A stretch of 64,000 nt of DNA, from the sequence record NC_054908.1; one strand, 5' to 3'. This stretch comes from Escherichia phage vB_EcoM_DalCa. The translations under genes and the position numbers were made by a program. This document shows, in pieces, positions 941 through 39,319 of the stretch. Within the stretch, counting starts at the first letter, position 1; every line of letters begins with the position of its first letter. A model generated the notes under the pieces. That model made no database searches, was not told where the DNA came from, and saw nothing but the letters and a program-made list of their open reading frames with translations.

Positions 941-1502
941 ATTTTTCTAGTAATAAATCACTTTCAAAATTGGGATTTTCTACAAATTTATCAAAAAGAT
1001 CATCAACAATAGTTAAGATATTCTTTTTACTAAGAATACGTTTATTTTCATGCTTCGTTTCAGAATCAACTATAAGAGTAAAGAAATATTTCTTGCCCTG
1101 AAATTTTACAGTAGTATCAATATAAAATAAATTTGACTTTTGTAAATTACGTTTAAACCATGCGTCACTTAAACTATAAACACCGAGATAATCAAAATCG
1201 TCGTTTAAATAACAAACCGTCCATTCAGGAGAAATGAAATCAGTAAATTCAACATCAAAATCACACGTCAATGAATGAATTGATTCAATACTGTTAATGA
1301 GTATTCCAGGACGTATTAAAGACTTTTTACCTCTAGAAAATCTTCCGGAAAGGCTTTCATCAGTTTCATATGAAGACCCCCAATAGTAATTACGTCCTTC
1401 TGCCATGCGTTTAAGAGCATTTAGTAATTGGTCTGGAACATCAACCTGTCTTTGGAACTCTTCAAACATTGAATTGAAATCACTTTGCATTTTCATTTTC
1501 AT
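888..1502 (-). CDS. hypothetical protein (204 aa)
   Basis: long ORF preceded by GGAG/AGGA and an intercistronic hairpin; no motif recognised. Confidence 0.6.
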   Translation of the reverse strand: MKMKMQSDFNSMFEEFQRQVDVPDQLLNALKRMAEGRNYYWGSSYETDESLSGRFSRGKKSLIRPGILINSIESIHSLTCDFDVEFTDFISPEWTVCYLNDDFDYLGVYSLSDAWFKRNLQKSNLFYIDTTVKFQGKKYFFTLIVDSETKHENKRILSKKNILTIVDDLFDKFVENPNFESDLLLEKFVKECREYVKTITIPSK

Positions 1503-1543
1503 TCCTATTTACTCCAAGTATAAGGGGCCGAAGCCCCTTATCA

Positions 1544-2137
1544 TTATTTCAGAGAATTAATGTATTCCTGAACATCGGCAGAGGTAGTTTCAACCCCAGA
1601 AATATTACCGTTAAAGGTTTCAACTCGAGCAAGGGTATCTTCAATATCAACCTTAGTCAGTGCTGCAATTTCAACTACATCATCAGCAGTACTAATTCCA
1701 AGGGCATTTGCTGCACGAGTTTCACGGATATATTCCAATTTAACCGCAAGTTCTTGACGAGCATCATCTAACTCAACTACTTTCTTGGCGATTTCAATTC
1801 GCATTTCAGCATAACCGTCAGCCTTAGTAGTCAACTGCTCAGCTGTTCGACGATATAGTAAACCGAGTTTAGCATGCATTGTTACATCTTGGCCTTCGGA
1901 AAGAAGTTTACGAATTTCACGCTCTTTTGATTCGGCCTGTCGATTCTTTTCGATAACAAGTTCACGAATACGTTTTTCTTCGTTAATAGATTTAACAGAA
2001 GCAGTTTTTAGATCTTTAATTTTATCAAGTAGTTTTGCTGCTGCAGCAGTATACTGTTCTTCGACAGATAGATTTTTAGCCATAGCAGAACCAAGTTTAG
2101 TGCGAATAAACTCAACAATTTTCTTCAGTGTGTTCAT
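1544..2137 (-). CDS. coiled-coil protein of unknown function (197 aa)
   Basis: ORF with AAGGAAA RBS; charged heptad-like periodicity; N-terminus [10 protein letters not shown] has a weak I-x-E protease-site-like motif. Confidence 0.6.
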
Positions 2138-2208
2138 AGTATTTCCTTAGGTTAATTGAGATTTAAAATCCGTAGGAGTATAATACTCTATCGTCAAATT
2201 ATAGGCTC

Positions 2209-2238
2209 ATAATATCTCAATCATGAGCCTGCGTAAAC
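2209..2238 (-). promoter_or_regulatory. sigma70-type early promoter (-35 GTTTAC, -10 TATTAT)
   Basis: minus-strand GTTTAC at 2238-2233, 18-nt spacer, TATTAT at 2214-2209; upstream of ORF 1544..2137. Confidence 0.4.
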
Positions 2239-2502
2239 TTATTTCATATTATTGAAATATTCTTCTGCGATTTCGTCGTTATCATGGTAAACTTTAGAAG
2301 ACAGTTTAACATAACCTTCTGCTGTGAACATATTAATCACAACTTTTACAGTATACCACTGACCGTCTTCATTACCCATTACTGCGTAAGTTTCAAACAT
2401 CGGATGATCAGGACCGATAACTTTAATATCATTCACTGTACGACCGAAATCTTCTGAAACGCATTTCATAAAGAAGTTGAACAGTTCGCCGTAATTATCC
2501 AT
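2239..2502 (-). CDS. hypothetical protein (87 aa)
   Basis: ATG at 2502 preceded by GGAG and an early promoter; longer ORF-track start at 2622 would read through the promoter. Confidence 0.55.
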   Translation of the reverse strand: MDNYGELFNFFMKCVSEDFGRTVNDIKVIGPDHPMFETYAVMGNEDGQWYTVKVVINMFTAEGYVKLSSKVYHDNDEIAEEYFNNMK

Positions 2503-2545
2503 TTCATTCTCCAAGTTGTTTTCTGTATCAGTAGTTGATAGTTGT

Positions 2546-2575
2546 ATAGTACCATGGAAGAACAGAGATGTAAAC
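2546..2575 (-). promoter_or_regulatory. early promoter (-35 GTTTAC, -10 TACTAT)
   Basis: minus-strand GTTTAC 2575-2570, 18-nt spacer, TACTAT 2551-2546, then GGAG and ATG. Confidence 0.5.
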
Positions 2576-2731
2576 AGTTTTGTGAAAAAATTTTTAGGGA
2601 ATTCTAGGGCAGGGATGGGCAATTAAAGGATAGGATAATATATTATAAAGGGTATAAACTAAATGATGCCTAGAGAGGTCCAGAAAGGCCTAGATACCAA
2701 AAAGCCCTATCATTTAGATAGGGATTTAAAA

Positions 2732-3295
2732 TTATTTACCTAGTTTACTTATTATAGCTTCTGCAGCAGCTTTTAGCTTAGATGCAGTGTTAATACGATT
2801 TTTAATTTCAGTATACGCATCGCCAAGAACATCAAGGCTATCAGAATAAACACTTACACTATTGCGTTCGCTATTTGAAATAGAACCTTTAGTTTTGCGG
2901 TCAAAATCGGTGTACACGTCTTGAAGATCGCGGGCTGCCTTCTTTGCATCATCCAATGCATCAAGAGCTTTATTCAAAGCATTAACGTATTTTTTAGTGT
3001 CGAACATATTCTTAGAAATTTTAACAGGTGCGCGTTCAGGAGTAGCTAACACAGATTTAGGAACCTGAGCGCCAGATGCCAATTTCTTAGAAATTTTGAA
3101 AAATGCTTTATTGAATTTATTTTCTTGACTCATTGTAAAAGAACTATTATCGATGTTGTACATTTCAATAGCTTTAGCTTTCCACTTAAGAAAATCGCCG
3201 CGGTCTTTTGGGTCCAATTGGAAGAATACTTTAGTAAGATCTGCTTCAGATGGTAATTTTGCTGCTTCGGTTAAAAATTCGGCATAGGTTTTCAT
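2732..3295 (-). CDS. candidate capsid-packaged internal protein (187 aa) with CTS-like N-terminus
   Basis: N-terminus MKTYAEFLTE resembles T4 IPIII capsid-targeting sequence MKTYQEFIAE, with L-x-E at residues 8-10. Confidence 0.65.
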   Translation of the reverse strand: MKTYAEFLTEAAKLPSEADLTKVFFQLDPKDRGDFLKWKAKAIEMYNIDNSSFTMSQENKFNKAFFKISKKLASGAQVPKSVLATPERAPVKISKNMFDTKKYVNALNKALDALDDAKKAARDLQDVYTDFDRKTKGSISNSERNSVSVYSDSLDVLGDAYTEIKNRINTASKLKAAAEAIISKLGK

Positions 3296-3383
3296 TTAAA
3301 ATCCTTGAAATAATTTATCGGTTGGTTATTAATTATTTATTACTTTGTTACTATCCGTAACAGCGTTATCCGAGTGATTCAAA

Positions 3384-3412
3384 CTAAAAAGCCCCAACCT
3401 TTCGGTCGGGGC
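3384..3412 (-). terminator. intrinsic terminator hairpin with U-run
   Basis: minus-strand GCCCCGACC-GAAA-GGTTGGGGC followed by TTTTT; just after stop of ORF 3421..3894. Confidence 0.6.
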
Positions 3413-3420
3413 TAAGAATG

Positions 3421-3894
3421 TCATTTGATTTGTTTAGCAGACCAAATGCGGTCTTTAATAATTTTTTGGATGTCTTCAACATACTCAAGAGAGTGAACAT
3501 GTGGATTATCTTTGAAACTATAAGCACGGGCTAACTTTTGGCCTTCGGTTTTGATTACTAAAAGCTCTTTAAGGATAGCTTCATATTTAGCGATAATTCC
3601 TTTAACGATATTTTTTTCTTGTGCCGCTTTAGGATCTGCTTTAGGAGCAGGTTTACCCGAAGCCTTTGCAAAAGCAGCGCCAGTAGCAACTAAACTTTTC
3701 CAGGCCATACTAACTGCATTTCCCGTAAATCCTTCCGCTTTCATGTCGCGTGCAAACTGGAATCGCGATTCATCAGAAGCATCTTTATAGGAATATTTAC
3801 CCGCGGCAATGGCAGCTTTTGCAACAGCTTGAATTTCGGTGCTAGATGCTTCATTTAACACCGCTTCATTTAAAAATTGAGTATATGATTTCAT
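3421..3894 (-). CDS. candidate capsid-packaged internal protein (157 aa) with CTS-like N-terminus
   Basis: ATG at 3894 gives N-terminus MKSYTQFLNE (L-x-E at 8-10); ORF-track extension to 4071 reads through terminator and tRNA-like sequence. Confidence 0.65.
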   Translation of the reverse strand: MKSYTQFLNEAVLNEASSTEIQAVAKAAIAAGKYSYKDASDESRFQFARDMKAEGFTGNAVSMAWKSLVATGAAFAKASGKPAPKADPKAAQEKNIVKGIIAKYEAILKELLVIKTEGQKLARAYSFKDNPHVHSLEYVEDIQKIIKDRIWSAKQIK

Positions 3895-3932
3895 CTTATT
3901 TCCTGTTTTAATTTGTAGATTTAATATACTAA

Positions 3933-3940
3933 TATTTATA
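3933..3940 (-). promoter_or_regulatory. late promoter -10 element TATAAATA (minus strand)
   Basis: exact TATAAATA about 40 nt upstream of ATG 3894. Confidence 0.4.
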
Positions 3941-3969
3941 CCAAAAAGCCCCAACCTTTCGGTCGGGGC
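3941..3969 (-). terminator. intrinsic terminator hairpin, exact copy of the 3384..3412 hairpin
   Basis: same GCCCCGACC-GAAA-GGTTGGGGC stem-loop plus TTTTT. Confidence 0.6.
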
Positions 3970-4020
3970 TAAGCCTTGCGGCAACCTTGTCGGGGTTCCA
4001 CCTGCTAAGGCAAGTGTTTG

Positions 4021-4179
4021 TACGAAACGCCGGGATTCGAACCCGGTTATTAAGTAGTTGACGCTACTCAATATTTTTAAAAGGCCATATCTCGACCATA
4101 TCCGAACGTTCCGTCAAAAACGCTACTCGGCTTACGGCAAAGATATTTCCTCGAATCGATAATTCGGTGCGCCGTTTCT
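4021..4179 (-). ncRNA. candidate small stable RNA with tRNA-like T-arm and acceptor end
   Basis: minus-strand CCGGG-TTCGAAT-CCCGG T-arm then CGTTTCG; a complementary GAAACG lies about 150 nt upstream; no complete cloverleaf found by hand. Confidence 0.3.
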
Positions 4180-4277
4180 GCTGTGATAGTAAAGAGCCAG
4201 AACACAGTAAAACTGTGGGAGGAAACTATACTCCAGGGAACATCAGTCCGACGACTTACCGGTAGCGACCCGGTTTC

Positions 4278-4628
4278 TTAATATTCTTTTAAAGAATCAA
4301 TATATTCACGGCGTTTACGCCACAAATCAATTGCTTCATACGCGGATTCAGCATTTCGAATTAGCCTGCATTTATGTAAAGACTTATGATTTTGATATTG
4401 TGTAGATAACGGAATTGTATCTAAAAGGTCTTTACGATCAAAATATTCGTAACCATCTAAACCAAATGAACGATTTTTGAGAAATTGCCAATGACCATAT
4501 TCGTTTTCGACATAAACATAATCTGCATGCTGATAAAGCAAATTAATTACACGTTCAGAAATAACAGTATCATTATGATTAAAATAGAATGTTAAATCAT
4601 GAACTACTAAATAAACATTACCTTTCAT
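4278..4628 (-). CDS. hypothetical protein (116 aa)
   Basis: ORF immediately downstream of the tRNA array on the same strand. Confidence 0.6.
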   Translation of the reverse strand: MKGNVYLVVHDLTFYFNHNDTVISERVINLLYQHADYVYVENEYGHWQFLKNRSFGLDGYEYFDRKDLLDTIPLSTQYQNHKSLHKCRLIRNAESAYEAIDLWRKRREYIDSLKEY

Positions 4629-4646
4629 ATTTTCCTCACTTATAAT

Positions 4647-4722
4647 TGGTCGAGGCAGTAGGGATCGAACCTACGACCTAGGACTTAGAAGGTCCTTGCT
4701 CTTCCTTCTGAGCTATGCCCCG
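4647..4722 (-). tRNA. tRNA-Arg (anticodon UCU)
   Basis: manual cloverleaf: acceptor CGGGGCA/TGCCTCG, D-stem GCTC/GAGC, anticodon loop CTTCTAA, T-loop TTCGATC, CCA encoded. Confidence 0.85.
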
Positions 4723-4726
4723 TAAT

Positions 4727-4802
4727 TGGGGTGACCGATGGGAGTCGAACCCATGACTACGAGAATCACAATCTCGAGTTCTACCAACTGAACTACGGCC
4801 AC
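4727..4802 (-). tRNA. tRNA-His (anticodon GUG)
   Basis: acceptor GTGGCCG/CGGTCAC, anticodon loop TTGTGAT, T-loop TTCGACT, discriminator C, CCA encoded; no G at -1. Confidence 0.8.
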
Positions 4803-4916
4803 ATTAATACCTACTCCAACAATCAAGATGTCTTCACACGAAATTAAGAGAAGAGTGATCAGTTCAACCCCTATAATCGCGTCAAGTAGATATTAATGTG
4901 ACAGTTGTCACAAATT

Positions 4917-4991
4917 TGGCGGACGTGATAGGATTCGAACCTATAACCAATCGCTTAACAGGCGATCGCTCTGCCATTGAGCTACACATCC
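4917..4991 (-). tRNA. tRNA-Asn (anticodon GUU)
   Basis: acceptor GGATGTG/CACGTCC, anticodon loop CTGTTAA, T-loop TTCGAAT, CCA encoded. Confidence 0.8.
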
Positions 4992-4995
4992 AAAT

Positions 4996-5082
4996 TGGTG
5001 GGGAGTGGTGGAGTCGAACCACCCGAGTCGCAATGACAATGGATTTACAGTCCACACCGCTACCTCTACGGGATAACTCCCC
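4996..5082 (-). tRNA. tRNA-Tyr (anticodon GUA), long variable arm
   Basis: acceptor GGGGAGT/ACTCCCC, anticodon loop CTGTAAA, T-arm GGTGG-TTCGACT-CCACC, CCA encoded. Confidence 0.8.
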
Positions 5083-5091
5083 AAATTAATT

Positions 5092-5166
5092 TGGTGGCCC
5101 TGGGTGGAATTGAACCACCATCTGGCGATTATGAGTCGCTTGCTTGAACCTTCCAGCTACAGGGCC
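5092..5166 (-). tRNA. tRNA with CAU anticodon (Ile-lysidine type or elongator Met)
   Basis: acceptor GGCCCTG/CAGGGCC, anticodon loop CTCATAA, T-loop TTCAATT; occupies the tRNA-Ile position of the T4 array. Confidence 0.75.
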
Positions 5167-5167
5167 T

Positions 5168-5243
5168 TGGTGCTGATTGACGGAATCGAACCGCCGACCT
5201 TCTCATTACAAGTGAGTTGCTCTACCTACTGAGCTAAATCAGC
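5168..5243 (-). tRNA. tRNA-Thr (anticodon UGU)
   Basis: acceptor GCTGATT/AATCAGC, anticodon loop CTTGTAA, T-loop TTCGATT, CCA encoded. Confidence 0.85.
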
Positions 5244-5248
5244 AAAAC

Positions 5249-5338
5249 TGGCGGAGGCGATAGGATTTGAACCTATGAGTCGCCGGAGCGACTGCCGGTT
5301 TTCAAGACCGGTGCATTAAACCACTCTGCCACGCCTCC
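5249..5338 (-). tRNA. tRNA-Ser (anticodon UGA), long variable arm
   Basis: acceptor GGAGGCG/CGCCTCC, anticodon stem-loop CCGGT-CTTGAAA-ACCGG, T-loop TTCAAAT, CCA encoded. Confidence 0.85.
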
Positions 5339-5340
5339 AG

Positions 5341-5414
5341 TCTCCGTGGCAGGATTTGAACCTACGACATTCTACTCCCAAAGCAGACGCTCTACCAAAC
5401 TGAGCTACACGGAG
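5341..5414 (-). tRNA. tRNA-Pro (anticodon UGG), no encoded CCA
   Basis: acceptor CTCCGTG/CACGGAG, anticodon loop TTTGGGA, T-loop TTCAAAT; 2 nt from tRNA-Ser 5' end. Confidence 0.85.
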
Positions 5415-5424
5415 TAAATTAAAT

Positions 5425-5498
<74 letters not shown>

Positions 5499-5503
5499 AA
5501 ATT

Positions 5504-5590
5504 TGGTGCGAGAAGTGGGACTCGAACCCACAAGGAAATCATTCCGCAGCATTTTAAGTGCTGTGCCTTTACCAATTTGGCCATTCTCGC
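5504..5590 (-). tRNA. tRNA-Leu (anticodon UAA), long variable arm
   Basis: acceptor GCGAGAA/TTCTCGC, anticodon stem-loop CAGCA-CTTAAAA-TGCTG, T-loop TTCGAGT, CCA encoded. Confidence 0.85.
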
Positions 5591-5591
5591 G

Positions 5592-5664
5592 CTGGGAATA
5601 AAGGACTCGAACCTTTGCATCCTGGAATCAAAATCCAGTGCCTTACCAACTTGGCTAATTCCCA
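5592..5664 (-). tRNA. tRNA-Gln (anticodon UUG), no encoded CCA
   Basis: acceptor TGGGAAT/ATTCCCA, anticodon loop TTTTGAT, T-loop TTCGAGT; 1 nt from tRNA-Leu 5' end. Confidence 0.85.
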
Positions 5665-6693: not shown

Positions 6694-6927
6694 TTATTTT
6701 TTACGAAAAATTGATTTATTTTCTGCTGCCCATTTTTCAATAACTGCAGCAGGACCAGTAACAACAATTTTATCACCGTAATCTTCTGCGGCGAGTTGAC
6801 CGAAATTATCTAATGCATCACGAAGAACTCCATGAGGCATTTCACCCATTTTATCTTTCTTGCCAGTGTAAATAAACTCAACTTTTACATCAGCAGTTTC
6901 AGCAATAAATTCTTGGTAAGTTTTCAT
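6694..6927 (-). CDS. internal protein (ip-family) with canonical capsid-targeting sequence
   Basis: N-terminus MKTYQEFIAE from ATG 6927 equals the T4 IPIII-type CTS with gp21 cleavage motif IAE; lies in the ip position upstream of 57B. Confidence 0.7.
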   Translation of the reverse strand: MKTYQEFIAETADVKVEFIYTGKKDKMGEMPHGVLRDALDNFGQLAAEDYGDKIVVTGPAAVIEKWAAENKSIFRKK

Positions 6928-7003: not shown

Positions 7004-7261
7004 TTATTTTAAATCTTCTAATCGTTTCTTCATCTTAGAACCATTTTTAGCAATTTCTCCTGCATCGGAGCATAATGCTAAAAGTGCTTTAACTTTAGTT
7101 TGGTCTCCTTTAAAAGATGAAGGATCGACCGCAGCAGCAAGTTCTTTAATACGAGAGAAAAGACGCTCAGCTTCAGCTAAAGCCATTCCAAGCTTTACTT
7201 CCATACCGTGGGAAGATTCAGTGATAGTAGTTTTTGTAGCAAACTCTTTGAAAGTTTTCAT
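7004..7261 (-). CDS. hypothetical small protein (85 aa), possible internal protein
   Basis: N-terminus MKTFKEFATKTTITE loosely CTS-like; flanked by the same promoter cassette as the ip gene. Confidence 0.55.
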   Translation of the reverse strand: MKTFKEFATKTTITESSHGMEVKLGMALAEAERLFSRIKELAAAVDPSSFKGDQTKVKALLALCSDAGEIAKNGSKMKKRLEDLK

Positions 7262-11346: not shown

Positions 11347-13057
11347 TAACCTTAATTGGTTTGTTGGTGTTGTTGAAGATAGAATGGACCCATTAAAATT
11401 AGGTCGTGTTCGTGTTCGTGTGGTTGGTCTGCATCCACCTCAAAGAGCACAAGGCGATGTAATGGGTATTCCAACTGAAAAATTACCATGGATGTCAGTT
11501 ATTCAACCTATAACTTCTGCAGCAATGTCTGGAATTGGAGGTTCTGTTACTGGACCGGTAGAAGGAACTAGAGTTTATGGTCATTTTTTAGACAAATGGA
11601 AAACTAACGGAATTGTCCTTGGCACGTATGGTGGAATAGTTCGCGAAAAACCGAATAGACTTGAAGGATTTTCTGACCCAACTGGGCAATATCCTAGACG
11701 TTTAGGAAATGATACTAATGTATTAAACCAAGGCGGAGAAGTAGGATATGATTCGTCTTCTAATATTATCCAAGATAGCAATCTAGACACTGCGATAAAT
11801 CCTGATGATAGACCGCTATCAGAGATTCCAACTGATGATAATCCAAATATGTCAATGGCTGAAATGCTTCGCCGTGATGAAGGATTAAGACTAAAAGTCT
11901 ATTGGGATACAGAAGGATATCCGACAATTGGTATTGGTCATCTTATCATAAAGCAGCCAGTTCGTGATATGGCTCAAATTAATAAAGTTTTATCGAAACA
12001 AGTTGGTCGTGAAATTACTGGAAACCCAGGTTCTATTACAATGGAAGAAGCGACGACTTTATTTGAACGTGATTTGGCTGATATGCAAAGGGATATTAAA
12101 TCACATTCTAAAGTAGGACCAGTCTGGCAAGCTGTCAACCGTTCTCGTCAAATGGCATTAGAAAATATGGCGTTTCAGATGGGTGTTGGCGGTGTAGCTA
12201 AATTTAACACAATGTTAACTGCTATGTTAGCAGGAGATTGGGAAAAAGCATATAAAGCCGGTCGTGATTCATTGTGGTATCAACAAACAAAAGGCCGTGC
12301 ATCCCGTGTTACCATGATTATTCTTACAGGTAATTTGGAATCATATGGTGTTGAAGTGAAAACCCCAGCTAGGTCTCTATCAGCAATGGCTGCTACTGTA
12401 GCTAAATCTTCTGACCCGGCTGACCCTCCTATTCCAAATGACTCGAGAATTTTATTCAAAGAACCAGTTTCTTCATATAAAGGCGAATATCCTTATGTGC
12501 ATACAATGGAAACTGAAAGCGGACATATCCAAGAATTTGATGATACCCCTGGGCAAGAACGATACAGATTAGTTCATCCGACTGGAACTTATGAAGAAGT
12601 ATCACCGTCAGGAAGAAGAACAAGAAAAACTGTCGATAATTTGTATGATATAACCAACGCTGATGGTAATTTTTTGGTAGCCGGTGATAAAAAGACTAAC
12701 GTCGGTGGATCAGAAATTTATTACAACATGGATAATCGTCTTCACCAAATAGATGGAAGCAATACAATATTTGTACGTGGCGATGAAACTAAGACGGTTG
12801 AAGGTAATGGAACTATCCTAGTTAAAGGTAATGTTACTATTGTAGTTGAAGGTAATGCTGACATCACAGTTAAAGGAGATGCTACCACTTTAGTTGAAGG
12901 TAATCAAACTAATACAGTAAATGGAAATCTTTCTTGGAAAGTTGCTGGGACAGTTGATTGGGACGTTGGCGGTGATTGGACAGAAAAAATGGCATCTATG
13001 AGTTCTATTTCATCCGGTCAATACACAATTGATGGATCGAGGATTGACATTGGCTAA
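11330..13057 (+). CDS. 5: gp5 baseplate hub subunit and tail lysozyme
   Basis: 575 aa; central lysozyme-like segment (DTEGYPTIGIGH) and C-terminal VxGxxxxx beta-helix repeats. Confidence 0.95.
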   Translation: MEMISNNLNWFVGVVEDRMDPLKLGRVRVRVVGLHPPQRAQGDVMGIPTEKLPWMSVIQPITSAAMSGIGGSVTGPVEGTRVYGHFLDKWKTNGIVLGTYGGIVREKPNRLEGFSDPTGQYPRRLGNDTNVLNQGGEVGYDSSSNIIQDSNLDTAINPDDRPLSEIPTDDNPNMSMAEMLRRDEGLRLKVYWDTEGYPTIGIGHLIIKQPVRDMAQINKVLSKQVGREITGNPGSITMEEATTLFERDLADMQRDIKSHSKVGPVWQAVNRSRQMALENMAFQMGVGGVAKFNTMLTAMLAGDWEKAYKAGRDSLWYQQTKGRASRVTMIILTGNLESYGVEVKTPARSLSAMAATVAKSSDPADPPIPNDSRILFKEPVSSYKGEYPYVHTMETESGHIQEFDDTPGQERYRLVHPTGTYEEVSPSGRRTRKTVDNLYDITNADGNFLVAGDKKTNVGGSEIYYNMDNRLHQIDGSNTIFVRGDETKTVEGNGTILVKGNVTIVVEGNADITVKGDATTLVEGNQTNTVNGNLSWKVAGTVDWDVGGDWTEKMASMSSISSGQYTIDGSRIDIG

Positions 13058-35607: not shown

Positions 35608-35608
<1 letters not shown>

Positions 35609-35847
35609 TGGAAGGTTTAATTGAAGCTATTAAATCAAACGACCTCGTAGCCGCTCGTAAATTATTTGCTGAAGCCATGGCTGCAAGAACGACTGATTTA
35701 ATTAAAGAAGAAAAAATCGCTATCGCTCGTAATTTCTTAATCGAAGGTGAAGAACCTGATGACGAGGATGATGACGAAGACGAAGATAGTGATGATAAAG
35801 ACGACAAAAAAGACAAAGACTCTGACGAAGACGAGGATGATGAATAA
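35608..35847 (+). CDS. 67: gp67 prohead core protein
   Basis: 79 aa with poly-acidic C-terminus. Confidence 0.88.
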
Positions 35848-36272
35848 TGCTTCTGATCCCTGAAACTCATGAATTAGTTCTCGAGAATGTCGAAGCACTT
35901 ATTCCTGAAGCACAGGGTCGCTTTGACGAATTGTCTTCTGCTTTAAATAAAGACGATATAAATACAATTGTCGAGAATATGCTTGATGATGAAACTGATT
36001 TAGCGGTTGCATTAGCTTCTATTAATGAAAATATGCCGTTAAATGAATTTATCGTTAAACATGTTTCTGCCCGTGGTGAAATTACTCGCACTAAAGATCG
36101 CAAAACCCGCGAACGTAATGCATTTCAAACTACCGGGTTGTCTAAAGCAAAACGTAGACAAATTGCTCGTAAAGCTACCAAAACGAAGATTGCCAATCCA
36201 GCAGGTCAATCTCGTGCTCAGCGTAAGCGTAAAAAAGCTCTTAAACGCCGTAAAGCATTAGGATTAAGCTAA
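35847..36272 (+). CDS. 68: gp68 prohead core protein
   Basis: 141 aa, basic C-terminus; synteny. Confidence 0.88.
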
Positions 36273-36910
36273 TGAATGAACCCCAATTACTAATTGAAAC
36301 TTGGGGTCAACCTGGCGAAATTATTGATGGCGTACCAATGCTTGAATCTCATGATGGAAAAGACTTAGGTTTAAAACCGGGTTTATACATCGAAGGAATA
36401 TTCATGCAAGCGGAAGTCGTCAATAGAAATAAACGTCTTTATCCAAAACGTATATTAGAAAAAGCGGTAAAAGACTATATTAATGAGCAAGTTTTAACTA
36501 AACAAGCTCTCGGAGAATTAAATCATCCTCCACGCGCTAATGTTGACCCGATGCAAGCCGCTATCATTATAGAAGATATGTGGTGGAAAGGAAATGACGT
36601 ATACGGACGAGCTCGTGTTATTGAAGGTGACCACGGTCCTGGAGATAAATTAGCAGCTAATATTCGTGCCGGATGGATTCCAGGAGTTTCTTCTCGTGGA
36701 TTAGGTTCATTGACTGACACAAATAAAGGTTATCGTATCGTAAACGAAGGATTCAAATTAACTGTAGGTGTTGATGCAGTATGGGGTCCAAGTGCTCCAG
36801 ATGCATGGGTAACTCCTAAGGAAATTACCGAATCACAGACGGCGGAAGCCGATACAAGTGCCGATGACGCCTATATGGCTCTCGCAGAGGCCATGAAAAA
36901 AGCGTTATAA
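36272..36910 (+). CDS. 21: gp21 prohead core protease
   Basis: 212 aa; synteny 68-21-22. Confidence 0.93.
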   Translation: MNEPQLLIETWGQPGEIIDGVPMLESHDGKDLGLKPGLYIEGIFMQAEVVNRNKRLYPKRILEKAVKDYINEQVLTKQALGELNHPPRANVDPMQAAIIIEDMWWKGNDVYGRARVIEGDHGPGDKLAANIRAGWIPGVSSRGLGSLTDTNKGYRIVNEGFKLTVGVDAVWGPSAPDAWVTPKEITESQTAEADTSADDAYMALAEAMKKAL

Positions 36911-36913
36911 ATA
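36906..36913 (+). promoter_or_regulatory. late promoter TATAAATA (gene 22)
   Basis: exact TATAAATA overlapping gene 21 stop, 28 nt upstream of ATG 36941. Confidence 0.6.
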
Positions 36914-36940
36914 TTATTATCTAAACAACAGGACTACAAA

Positions 36941-37750
36941 ATGCTTAAAGAACAACTGATTGCCGAAGCGCAGAAAATTGATGCTTCCGTTGCTCTTGAT
37001 AGTATTTTCGAATCAGTTAATATTTCTCCGGAAGCAAAAGAAACTTTCGGCACTGTATTCGAAGCTACCGTCAAGCAGCACGCCGTTAAATTAGCTGAAT
37101 CTCATATCGCTAAAATTGCTGAAAAAGCAGAAGAAGAAGTAGAAAAAAATAAAGAAGAAGCAGAAGAAAAAGCTGAGAAGAAAATCGCTGAGCAAGCTTC
37201 TAAATTCCTTGACCATCTTGCAAAAGAATGGCTCACTGAAAATAAATTAGCAGTAGATAAAGGTATCAAAGCCGAACTGTTTGAATCCATGCTTGGTGGA
37301 TTGAAAGAGCTCTTCGTTGAACACAACGTTGTTGTTCCAGAAGAATCAGTTGATGTTGTAGCTGAAATGGAAGAAGAACTGCAAGAACATAAAGAAGAAT
37401 CAGCTCGTCTGTTCGAAGAACTCAATAAGCGTGACGCATATATCAATTATGTGCAGCGTGAAGTGGCATTGAGCGAAAGTACTAAAGATCTGACTGAGTC
37501 TCAAAAAGAAAAAGTCTCTGCTCTGGTCGAAGGTATGGATTATTCAGATGCATTCTCAAGTAAATTGAGTGCAATCGTAGAAATGGTGAAGAAATCTAAT
37601 AAAGATGAAAGCACTATTACTGAGAGTATAAATACTCCTGATACTGAAGCAGCCGGACTGAATTTCGTCACTGAAGCTGTAGAAGATAAATCTGCACAAG
37701 GTGCAGAAGATATTGTAAGTGTATATGCGAAAGTCGCATCTCGTTTCTAA
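36941..37750 (+). CDS. 22: gp22 prohead core scaffold protein
   Basis: 269 aa acidic coiled-coil protein. Confidence 0.93.
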   Translation: MLKEQLIAEAQKIDASVALDSIFESVNISPEAKETFGTVFEATVKQHAVKLAESHIAKIAEKAEEEVEKNKEEAEEKAEKKIAEQASKFLDHLAKEWLTENKLAVDKGIKAELFESMLGGLKELFVEHNVVVPEESVDVVAEMEEELQEHKEESARLFEELNKRDAYINYVQREVALSESTKDLTESQKEKVSALVEGMDYSDAFSSKLSAIVEMVKKSNKDESTITESINTPDTEAAGLNFVTEAVEDKSAQGAEDIVSVYAKVASRF

Positions 37751-37768
37751 TTTTAAAGGTTAACACAA

Positions 37769-39319
37769 ATGACTATCAAAACTAAAGCTGAACTTTTGAA
37801 CAAATGGAAGCCATTACTGGAAGGTGAAGGTTTACCGGAAATTGCTAATAGCAAACAAGCGATTATCGCTAAAATCTTTGAAAACCAGGAAAAAGATTTC
37901 CAGACAGCTCCGGAATATAAAGACGAAAAAATTGCTCAGGCATTCGGTTCTTTCTTAACAGAAGCTGAAATCGGTGGTGACCACGGTTACAATGCTACCA
38001 ACATCGCTGCAGGTCAGACTTCTGGAGCAGTAACTCAGATTGGCCCAGCTGTTATGGGTATGGTACGTCGTGCTATTCCTAACCTGATTGCTTTCGATAT
38101 TTGTGGTGTTCAGCCAATGAATAACCCGACTGGCCAGGTATTCGCACTGCGTGCAGTATATGGTAAAGACCCAATCGCTGCTGATGCTAAAGAAGCATTC
38201 CACCCAATGTATGGTCCAGATGCAATGTTCTCTGGTCAGGGTGCTGCTAAGAAATTCCCAGCTCTGGCTGCTAGCACACAAACCAAAGTAGGTGATATCT
38301 ATACTCACTTCTTCCAGGAAACTGGTACTGTATATCTGCAAGCTTCTGCTCAAGTAACAATTAGTTCTACTGCAGATGATGCAGAAATTAAGAAACAAAT
38401 GGAAGCTGGCGCATTGGTAGAAATCGCTGAAGGTATGGCTACTTCTATCGCTGAACTTCAGGAAGGTTTCAACGGTTCTACCGATAACCCATGGAATGAA
38501 ATGGGCTTCCGTATCGATAAACAAGTTATCGAAGCTAAATCTCGTCAGCTGAAAGCTGCTTACTCTATCGAATTAGCACAAGACCTCCGCGCTGTTCACG
38601 GTATGGATGCTGATGCTGAACTGTCTGGTATTCTGGCTACCGAAATTATGCTGGAAATCAACCGCGAAGTTGTTGATTGGATTAACTACTCCGCTCAGGT
38701 TGGTAAATCTGGTATGACCCTGACTCCGGGTTCTAAAGCTGGTGTATTTGACTTCCAGGACCCAATCGATATTCGTGGTGCTCGCTGGGCAGGTGAATCC
38801 TTTAAAGCTCTGTTGTTCCAGATTGACAAAGAAGCAGTTGAAATTGCTCGTCAGACTGGTCGCGGCGAAGGTAACTTCATTATCGCTTCCCGTAACGTAG
38901 TTAACGTTCTGGCTTCAGTTGATACCGGCATTTCTTATGCTGCACAAGGTCTGGCTACTGGCTTTAACACTGATACTACCAAGTCAGTATTTGCTGGTGT
39001 TCTGGGTGGTAAATACCGTGTATATATCGACCAGTATGCTAAACAGGATTATTTCACCGTAGGTTATAAAGGTCCGAACGAAATGGATGCTGGTATTTAC
39101 TATGCTCCATATGTAGCTCTGACTCCGCTGCGTGGTTCTGATCCGAAGAACTTCCAACCGGTAATGGGATTCAAAACTCGTTACGGTATCGGTATCAACC
39201 CATTTGCAGAATCCGCTGCTCAGGCTCCGGCTTCTCGCATCCAGAGCGGTATGCCTTCTATTCTGAATAGCCTTGGTAAAAACGCTTACTTCCGCCGTGT
39301 ATATGTTAAAGGTATCTAA
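37769..39319 (+). CDS. 23: gp23 major capsid protein
   Basis: 516 aa; N-terminus MTIKTKAELLNKWKPLLEGEG; differs from T4 by a short internal indel. Confidence 0.97.
   Translation: MTIKTKAELLNKWKPLLEGEGLPEIANSKQAIIAKIFENQEKDFQTAPEYKDEKIAQAFGSFLTEAEIGGDHGYNATNIAAGQTSGAVTQIGPAVMGMVRRAIPNLIAFDICGVQPMNNPTGQVFALRAVYGKDPIAADAKEAFHPMYGPDAMFSGQGAAKKFPALAASTQTKVGDIYTHFFQETGTVYLQASAQVTISSTADDAEIKKQMEAGALVEIAEGMATSIAELQEGFNGSTDNPWNEMGFRIDKQVIEAKSRQLKAAYSIELAQDLRAVHGMDADAELSGILATEIMLEINREVVDWINYSAQVGKSGMTLTPGSKAGVFDFQDPIDIRGARWAGESFKALLFQIDKEAVEIARQTGRGEGNFIIASRNVVNVLASVDTGISYAAQGLATGFNTDTTKSVFAGVLGGKYRVYIDQYAKQDYFTVGYKGPNEMDAGIYYAPYVALTPLRGSDPKNFQPVMGFKTRYGIGINPFAESAAQAPASRIQSGMPSILNSLGKNAYFRRVYVKGI

Follow-up and report, generated by a model that had tools for sequence, protein, structure and literature searches.

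Escherichia phage vB_EcoM_DalCa (sequence record NC_054908.1) encodes, within the 64,000-nt stretch that we analysed (the window), two small proteins, A and B. On their sequences, both are very probably internal head proteins that are packaged and processed by gp21, and each represents a family that had no name before. We propose, with a probability of roughly 0.78, that A and B are unrelated, late-made proteins that are loaded into the head by a capsid-targeting sequence (CTS), cut by the prohead protease gp21 and injected, that their genes occupy independent cassettes at a site behind rnaC, and that B is a dispensable effector and A is needed on Escherichia coli K-12. Polymorphic CTS internal proteins are an already established kind; what is new is the two families and a third cassette site, behind rnaC. 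Direct support comes from sequence features, cassette anatomy, distribution, purifying selection and identity to two genes of phage Bas37 (bas37_0243 and bas37_0244), from which we infer packaging, cleavage, injection and function. The two open reading frames (ORFs) are as follows.

2732..3295, minus strand: ORF A, 187 aa, CTS MKTYAEFLTE, predicted gp21 cut E10|A11
3421..3894, minus strand: ORF B, 157 aa, CTS MKSYTQFLNE, predicted gp21 cut E10|A11

The N-terminus reads MKTYAEFLTEAA in A and MKSYTQFLNEAV in B, to be compared with MKTYQEFIAEA in phage T4's IPII and IPIII. Within the CTS, the information for targeting resides in residues 4 and 7 and that for processing in residues 8 and 10 (PMC9026906). 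Both proteins have the aromatic residue 4 and Phe 7 (MKTYAEF in A, MKSYTQF in B) and, at residues 8–11, the gp21 motif (L/I)-x-E followed by Ala, Gly or Ser. The motif is L8-T9-E10|A11 in A, while B has two tandem L-N-E|A sites, L8-N9-E10|A11 and L13-N14-E15|A16. The predicted mature A would begin AAKLPSEADLTK... from A11, and mature B either AVLNEASS... (from A11) or ASSTEIQ... (from A16). We place the true start of B at the ATG at 3894, within a mechanical TTG ORF (3421..4071); an AGGA ribosome-binding site precedes it, and homologs begin at the same Met. The CTS is kept in diverged B homologs (MKFKEFLAE|AS, MKTYNEFLMTE|AS) and in an A relative of only 31% identity (MITFNEFLNE|S).

A first-pass annotation of the window had called ORFs at 2732..3295 and 3421..3894 and had read in each a T4-type CTS with L-x-E at residues 8–10 as the prohead-protease site. 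Our analysis bears this out: both ORFs are there on the minus strand, Y4, F7, L8 and E10 are kept with Ala at P1', and homologs keep the motif. The same annotation offered ORF 1544..2137 as a weaker candidate, which we reject as a CTS protein; its residues 4 and 7 are Leu and Ile where a CTS has Tyr and Phe, and it is orthologous to T4 e.6 (197 aa in each, with 3 residue differences), with a sigma-70-like promoter and without a late box.

In a six-frame translation of the window, the strict CTS pattern MK[TS][YF]xxF[ILV]xE[AGST] occurs 3 times, as compared to 0 times in 200 dinucleotide shuffles. A loose CTS pattern retrieves four ORFs only, namely A, B and two others (6694..6927 and 7004..7261) that lie at the ipI locus. 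The window also encodes a T4-type prohead protease and scaffolding core.

36272..36910, plus strand: gp21 prohead protease (Peptidase_S77), which should be the one that cleaves behind L-x-E
35608..37750: core proteins gp67, gp68 and gp22 (T4_CASP); with Gp23 the machinery spans 35608..39319

The prohead core genes share at least 97% nucleotide identity across sampled Tequatroviruses, e.g. T2 and PP01. In T4, the 10 residues of the CTS are enough for foreign proteins, e.g. green fluorescent protein and beta-galactosidase, to be packaged (PMC9026906). In the mechanism that we propose, A and B would each be made late in infection, and their first 10 residues would send them into the prohead scaffolding core. 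There gp21 would cut after Glu-10, or in B possibly after Glu-15, and the basic mature products A* (about 19.6 kDa) and B* (about 16 kDa) would stay in the head and enter the cell with the DNA.

The cassettes that hold the two genes are delimited by the following elements.

3947..3970, minus strand: terminator hairpin after rnaC, also in T4; attachment point of the cassette array and upstream direct-repeat copy at B
3933..3940, minus strand: late-promoter box of the B cassette, TATAAATA, a perfect T4 match 39 nt before the B ATG
3390..3413, minus strand: B-cassette terminator hairpin, identical to the copy at 3947..3970
3337..3344 (coordinates read by eye), minus strand: A-leader box, AATAAATA, a 7/8 late-box match about 42 nt before the A ATG
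2705..2723, minus strand: A-cassette terminator hairpin, CCCTATCTAAATGATAGGG plus T5, -10.7 kcal/mol

Behind the rnaC terminator AGCCCCGACCGAAAGGTTGGGGCTTTTT, T4 continues at once with GGTATCTAAGCC..., on to e.8. In the window, the same terminator leads into GGTATAAATA... (the leader of B, late box included), then into B and a second, identical terminator. The A leader AGTTTGAATC...GTAATAAATAATT... starts directly after the T-run of that B terminator and is followed by A, and after the A hairpin comes CTTTTTGGTATCTAGGCC..., the sequence found behind the rnaC terminator in T4, on to e.8. The junctions are alike in A-only phages, where the A leader directly follows the rnaC terminator, and in B-only phages. 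A cassette therefore consists of leader, CTS gene and terminator, inserted at a terminator T-run. Cassettes would insert at the T-run of the terminator behind rnaC and be gained or lost independently.

The two identical hairpins (3970..3947 and 3413..3390) read AGCCCCGACCGAAAGGTTGGGGCT plus T5, at about -20 kcal/mol, and flank B. Here the first-pass annotation needs one correction: it had an identical hairpin after each gene, and the hairpin after A is a different and weaker one. It was right that A and B lie downstream of the tRNA array (5664..4647, upstream on the minus strand), that a late element precedes the second gene (TATAAATA, minus strand, 3940..3933; wV7 and teqhal keep it as well) and that the genes form discrete cassettes. 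The B late box overlaps the GGTAT that comes after the upstream terminator, and diverged B alleles (Bas46, phiE142) have AATAAATA in its place. The A leader, GT(A/G)ATAAATAATTAATAAC, is conserved in six phages, A-only phages included. Our scan found no sigma-70-like promoter upstream of A or B, and the boxes, perfect in B and 7/8 in A, make both genes candidates for late expression.

A and B are independent cassettes; all four occupancy states of the rnaC site are seen. The site is empty in T4, T2 and RB10, holds B only in wV7, phiD1 and many others, holds A only in SP1, ESh27 and RB69, and holds both in the window, Bas36, Bas37, D5505, Bas46 and phiE142. T6, too, has neither gene. Cassettes occur at this site in both Tequatrovirus and Mosigvirus. 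By tblastn over 50,697 deposited phage records, A is present in 163 and B in 510, and about 740 records contain part of the flanking site. Window positions 1500–4700, with all genes on the minus strand, are 100% identical to several Tequatrovirus genomes, e.g. U115, Paracelsus and PYps5T. Some B alleles are damaged: teqhal (3717..4010), G28 and T4_ev240 have a 97-aa C-terminally truncated form, and the annotated B ORF of OE5505 (11777..12211) is N-terminally shortened, without the CTS. Such alleles fit with B being dispensable.

Predicted mature A has 177 aa, 19.6 kDa, an isoelectric point (pI) of 9.5, 32 Lys plus Arg and 23 Asp plus Glu, as compared to 183 aa, 20.4 kDa, pI 9.65, 33 and 23 for mature T4 IPIII (IPIII*). 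Mature B would have 147 or 142 aa, depending on the cut, with pI 9.5. Both genes are under strong purifying selection, with ratios of nonsynonymous to synonymous substitution rates (dN/dS) of 0.05–0.13 for A and 0.06–0.14 for B. We reject homology between A and B, and of either one to T4 IPI, IPII or IPIII: BLASTP and profile–profile comparison with hhalign found no similarity beyond residue 12, the alignments covering the CTS only. The Pfam model IPI_T4 matches T4 IPI and neither A nor B. A and B also cluster apart from IPI, IPII, IPIII, Ip4, Ip5 and Ip7, and an identification of B with T2 IpIV based on shared length (157 aa) fails, the two families being unrelated.

Sequence searches of Pfam, NCBIfam and PDB with A and B gave no match. 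PHROG 2280 (function unknown) matches both near full length (E 2e-53 for A, 2e-60 for B), and looks like a merger through the common leader and similar helical architecture, with no homology found behind the grouping. AlphaFold models of A and B are all-helical, with a small bundle at the N-terminus, a linker rich in Lys, Pro and Ala, and a helical hairpin at the C-terminus, at a predicted local distance difference test score (pLDDT) of 60 for A, which is low, and 75 for B. Foldseek returned only the proteins' own families (A against BFVD, B against PDB and BFVD). A is a near-orphan; an exhaustive HMMER search over 1.84 billion representatives retrieved its own cluster, fragments and the single distant relative mentioned above (204 aa). 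B has diverged alleles at 70–82% identity, and T4-like phages of Klebsiella and Yersinia have the B N-terminal domain and a CTS joined to a different C-terminal domain. Among the records that we saw, all name A and B "hypothetical protein" apart from one spurious JGI label, and none gives either an Ip name. Literature searches on RB32ORF133c, RB69ORF148c/149c, bas37_0243 and other locus tags found nothing, and one on Ip4, Ip5 and Ip7 retrieved only inositol-phosphate papers.

T4 IPIII resembles A in several ways: the CTS is the same at 7/10 residues (with I-x-E|A where A has L-x-E|A), mature length, mass, pI and charge are nearly equal, and the prohead core of the T-even phage that makes it is almost identical. 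IPIII is injected and inhibits a GmrSD enzyme (PMC12373910). The two proteins differ in that there is no similarity past residue 12 and in locus, e–denV in T4 as compared to rnaC–e.8 for A; moreover, IPIII is dispensable, whereas A is scored essential in Bas37. A sigma-70-like promoter lies upstream of T4 ipII, and the ipIII–ipII stretch yielded no terminators, whereas late boxes are the only promoter signals of A and B, and hairpins insulate the two genes.

The first-pass annotation had also suggested that A and B are injected anti-defence proteins. Precedents speak for the idea: T4 Ip1, Ip2 and Ip3 are inhibitors of type IV restriction, each directed at a GmrSD enzyme of its own (Silas et al. 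2025, PMC12373910), and bas37_0260, a CTS protein of the ipI locus without homology to T4 internal proteins, is an McrBC inhibitor as judged by deletion (10.1101/2025.11.20.689424). For A and B themselves, an anti-defence role is suggested by analogy only. B would be a dispensable accessory effector that, by that analogy, most likely blocks a nuclease-type host defence at DNA entry. Like A and B, bas37_0260 belongs to this lineage, has a CTS, lacks a T4 internal-protein homolog, is annotated as hypothetical and sits in a small cassette; its site is hypervariable, and it illustrates that unannotated CTS proteins of this phage can inhibit type IV restriction. It differs in being 77 aa, near-neutral (pI 6.5) and at another locus, A and B being larger and basic. 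It is also conditionally essential only with McrBC, whereas A insertions are missing even on a restriction-deleted host and B is never depleted in the data examined.

The polymorphic T-even internal proteins Ip4/IpIV, Ip5 and Ip7 are, like A and B, unrelated small proteins that share only the CTS and are swapped as cassettes. The named Ip families occupy the ipI locus or the surroundings of e, denV and vs.8; A and B lie at a third site, behind rnaC. Arbiol and colleagues are said to have described, in 2010, hyperplastic regions of T4-type phages that are shuffled via regulatory stem-loop cassettes (PeSLs). PeSLs resemble the A and B cassettes in being bounded by repeated regulatory stem-loops that serve as recombination junctions. 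The A/B junction is a terminator hairpin and T-run followed by a late box, whereas a PeSL reportedly pairs an early promoter with a stem-loop.

Transposon data are available for the twins of A and B in phage Bas37 (KarlGJung, MZ501089), which are 100% identical in nucleotide sequence: bas37_0243 is A and bas37_0244 is B, and the TA-site counts in the window (48 for A, 34 for B) equal the values in the preprint table. According to the HIDEN-SEQ tables, only 1/48 TA sites was hit in bas37_0243, which is called Essential, and 29/34 were hit in bas37_0244, which is dispensable (10.1101/2025.11.20.689424). The genes neighbouring bas37_0243 (e.8, e.6, e.5 and a 116-aa ORF) are non-essential and 87–100% saturated (10.1101/2025.11.20.689424). 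The Cas13a selection strain for T4 and Bas37 was E. coli K-12 MG1655 with deletions of mcrA, mcrBC, mrr and hsd (10.1101/2025.11.20.689424), and A insertions are absent even from the library selected on this restriction-deleted host. Scored essential under those conditions, A is not behaving like an ordinary accessory anti-restriction factor. Three readings of its essentiality stand: counter-defence against a K-12 function, a morphogenetic or delivery role, and a library-stock artefact. We see A as the IPIII-sized member of the set in a phage without IPIII and Ip4, needed for plaques on K-12 according to the transposon data; it would either disarm a K-12 function beyond McrA, McrBC, Mrr and EcoKI or be required for assembling heads or delivering the genome. 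Tentatively, and at somewhat below even odds, A may be the first CTS internal head protein indispensable to a T-even phage on an ordinary laboratory host, in the first of these roles or, where IPIII and Ip4 are both absent, in the second.

Several observations weigh against our overall proposal. The late box of A is imperfect, and we found no proteomic or N-terminal sequencing evidence for A or B in the literature. T4 ipI, ipII and ipIII tolerate insertions in the same transposon study, making the essentiality of A atypical (10.1101/2025.11.20.689424). The authors of that preprint never mention bas37_0243, the Essential call coming from the supplement only, and the call could arise from a library stock without the cassette. 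B was not depleted in the one resampling comparison examined (log2 fold change, log2FC, -0.11), which therefore points to no target for B. In addition, most relatives are without A, and in three GenBank genomes A has lost a single nucleotide, each time at a different position (nt 151 in G4500; nt 301, within an A6 run, in OE5505; nt 368 in RB69). A requirement for A can therefore not be universal. These frameshifts could be sequencing errors.

In one alternative, the role of A is mainly morphogenetic: it is a part of the scaffolding core that replaces IPIII or Ip4, not an anti-defence protein, and is essential because Bas37-type phages have no other IPIII-sized protein. Mature A does resemble IPIII* in size and charge, and a scan of the whole Bas37 genome found five CTS-like ORFs in all and no IPIII or Ip4. 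In T4, loss of IPIII by mutation halves the rate of head assembly, lowers the burst to about 40% and makes polyheads accumulate (PMC9026906). Yet IPIII is T4's only large internal protein and ipIII insertions are well tolerated, and B, also large and basic, is present in Bas37 without compensating for A. The core genes of the window are, moreover, at least 97% identical to those of T2 and PP01, which both lack A. The frameshifted alleles point both ways: the two Tequatroviruses among them, G4500 and OE5505, have Ip4, which fits redundancy among large internal proteins, but RB69 runs counter to that idea, with no IPIII or Ip4 in the regions examined. The sample is small, and we regard a mainly morphogenetic A as rather unlikely.

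We also think it unlikely that the Essential call is a technical artefact (a stock that lost or altered the cassette, a transposition or mapping problem, or an insertion-specific effect), with A as dispensable as B. Its absence from most relatives, its position between terminator repeats where cassettes come and go, the frameshifted alleles in deposited genomes of viable phages and the silence of the preprint authors on the gene would all suit an artefact. The boundary is sharp, however, with 85–100% saturation in the neighbours as compared to 2% in A, and the repeats flanking A have only about 10 nt in common, so that the cassette should seldom be lost spontaneously. Mapping ambiguity is unlikely, A being unique in the genome, and natural truncations after residues 50, 100 and 122 disfavour toxic truncation products. 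A further alternative, which we consider highly improbable, is that the shared N-terminus is a mere recombination linker and that A and B are not packaged but act in the cytoplasm of the producing cell. The 16 CTS families that we count below are indeed alike only in their first 10–12 codons, a stretch that could double as a homology patch for exchange. Homology-patch cassette exchange was reportedly proposed for the ipI locus by Repoila and colleagues in 1994. The conserved residues are, however, exactly those for targeting (4 and 7) and cleavage (8 and 10), kept at the protein level across diverged DNA, and the observed recombination junctions are terminators, not the CTS. Since the T4 CTS suffices for packaging, a late CTS protein should enter the core whatever other role it has.

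If A and B are injected internal proteins, as we propose, they would act ahead of any phage gene expression. Each T-even injected protein with a function worked out is a specific host-nuclease inhibitor. A and B are common and conserved, yet "hypothetical", and provide two candidates against the many orphan defences of Enterobacteria that target DNA, whether of GmrSD type or other. Of the two genes, A holds more interest, since a public dataset marks it essential, a result so far uninterpreted; B is a dispensable candidate effector. Should the essentiality of A be true, either K-12 raises a barrier against T-even phages that has gone unrecognised or internal proteins can be needed for structure. 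The site behind rnaC is a third hot spot for CTS cassettes and a place to look for new ones. These findings bear on host-range prediction for therapeutic Tequatroviruses and on CTS-based cargo delivery.

A regular-expression census of about 35 T4-like loci yielded 108 CTS ORFs in 16 families with unrelated mature parts, including IPI, IPII, IPIII, Ip4/IpIV, Ip5, Ip7, the bas37_0260 family, A and B. CTS repertoires are combinatorial across phages, as the following lists of CTS proteins found in the regions examined of each phage illustrate.

T4: IPI, IPII, IPIII
T2: Ip4, Ip5, Ip7
wV7: Ip4, B, Ip5
SP1: A, IPIII, IPII, Ip7 and others
Window lineage: A, B, 0260 family, Ip5

Among close relatives, e adjoins denV, with no ipII or ipIII, in D5505, Bas36 and Bas37. 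Mutual exclusion of A and IPIII is rejected, as phiE142 and SP1 have both; the co-occurrence table covers about 15 genomes, IMG/VR scans being sparse (3 loci for A, 13 for IPIII). The fifth CTS-like ORF of Bas37 (MZ501089) is bas37_0146 (93173..93337, minus strand), of 54 aa, which begins MKTYKEFIKE|D, with Asp and not Ala after the putative cut, and lies beside the primase gene, far from the three ip loci. The two CTS ORFs of the ipI locus in the window are as follows.

6694..6927, minus strand: 77-aa CTS ORF, MKTYQEFIAE|T..., 100% identical to bas37_0260
7004..7261, minus strand: 85-aa CTS ORF, MKTFKEFATKTT..., T2 Ip5 family, 98% identity

The former is hypothetical in most records, and its teqhal homolog (80% identity) is annotated "internal head protein". 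The Bas37 twin of the latter, bas37_0261, is depleted, with a log2FC of -2.09, in the first HIDEN-SEQ resampling sheet, by sheet order K-12 versus uropathogenic E. coli (UPEC) CFT073, and therefore may counter a CFT073 defence.

The remaining features around the cassettes are listed here.

4647..5664, minus strand: 11-tRNA array, upstream of B and A
4278..4628, minus strand: 116-aa ORF, PHROG 3355 (function unknown), between tRNA-Arg and rnaD
approximately 4281..4166 and 4159..4021, minus strand: rnaD and rnaC homologs, from T4 alignment; upstream border of the cassette site
2239..2502, minus strand: e.8
1544..2137, minus strand: e.6, 197 aa
888..1502, minus strand: e.5

Within the tRNA array, ARAGORN calls the gene at 5092..5166 (minus strand) tRNA-Met(CAT), and BASEL records call it a tRNA-Ile reading ATA; T4's own tRNA-Ile has a modified CAU anticodon. 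The 116-aa ORF is also in RB69 (ORF150c), T2 and wV7, its position is empty in T4, and it is non-essential in Bas37. The rnaD/rnaC region has 87% column identity to T4, rnaC being near-identical and part of rnaD variable. An Rfam search of these RNA genes beside the cassettes matched no family, and the G4500 GenBank record labels part of the corresponding region tRNA-Lys. In the same resampling sheet as above, bas37_0239 and bas37_0240, the twins of e.5 and e.6, are strongly depleted, with log2FC values of -3.6 and -6.5. The preprint authors built deletion plasmids for both, which they do not discuss. Though not a CTS protein, e.6 may be an anti-defence gene.

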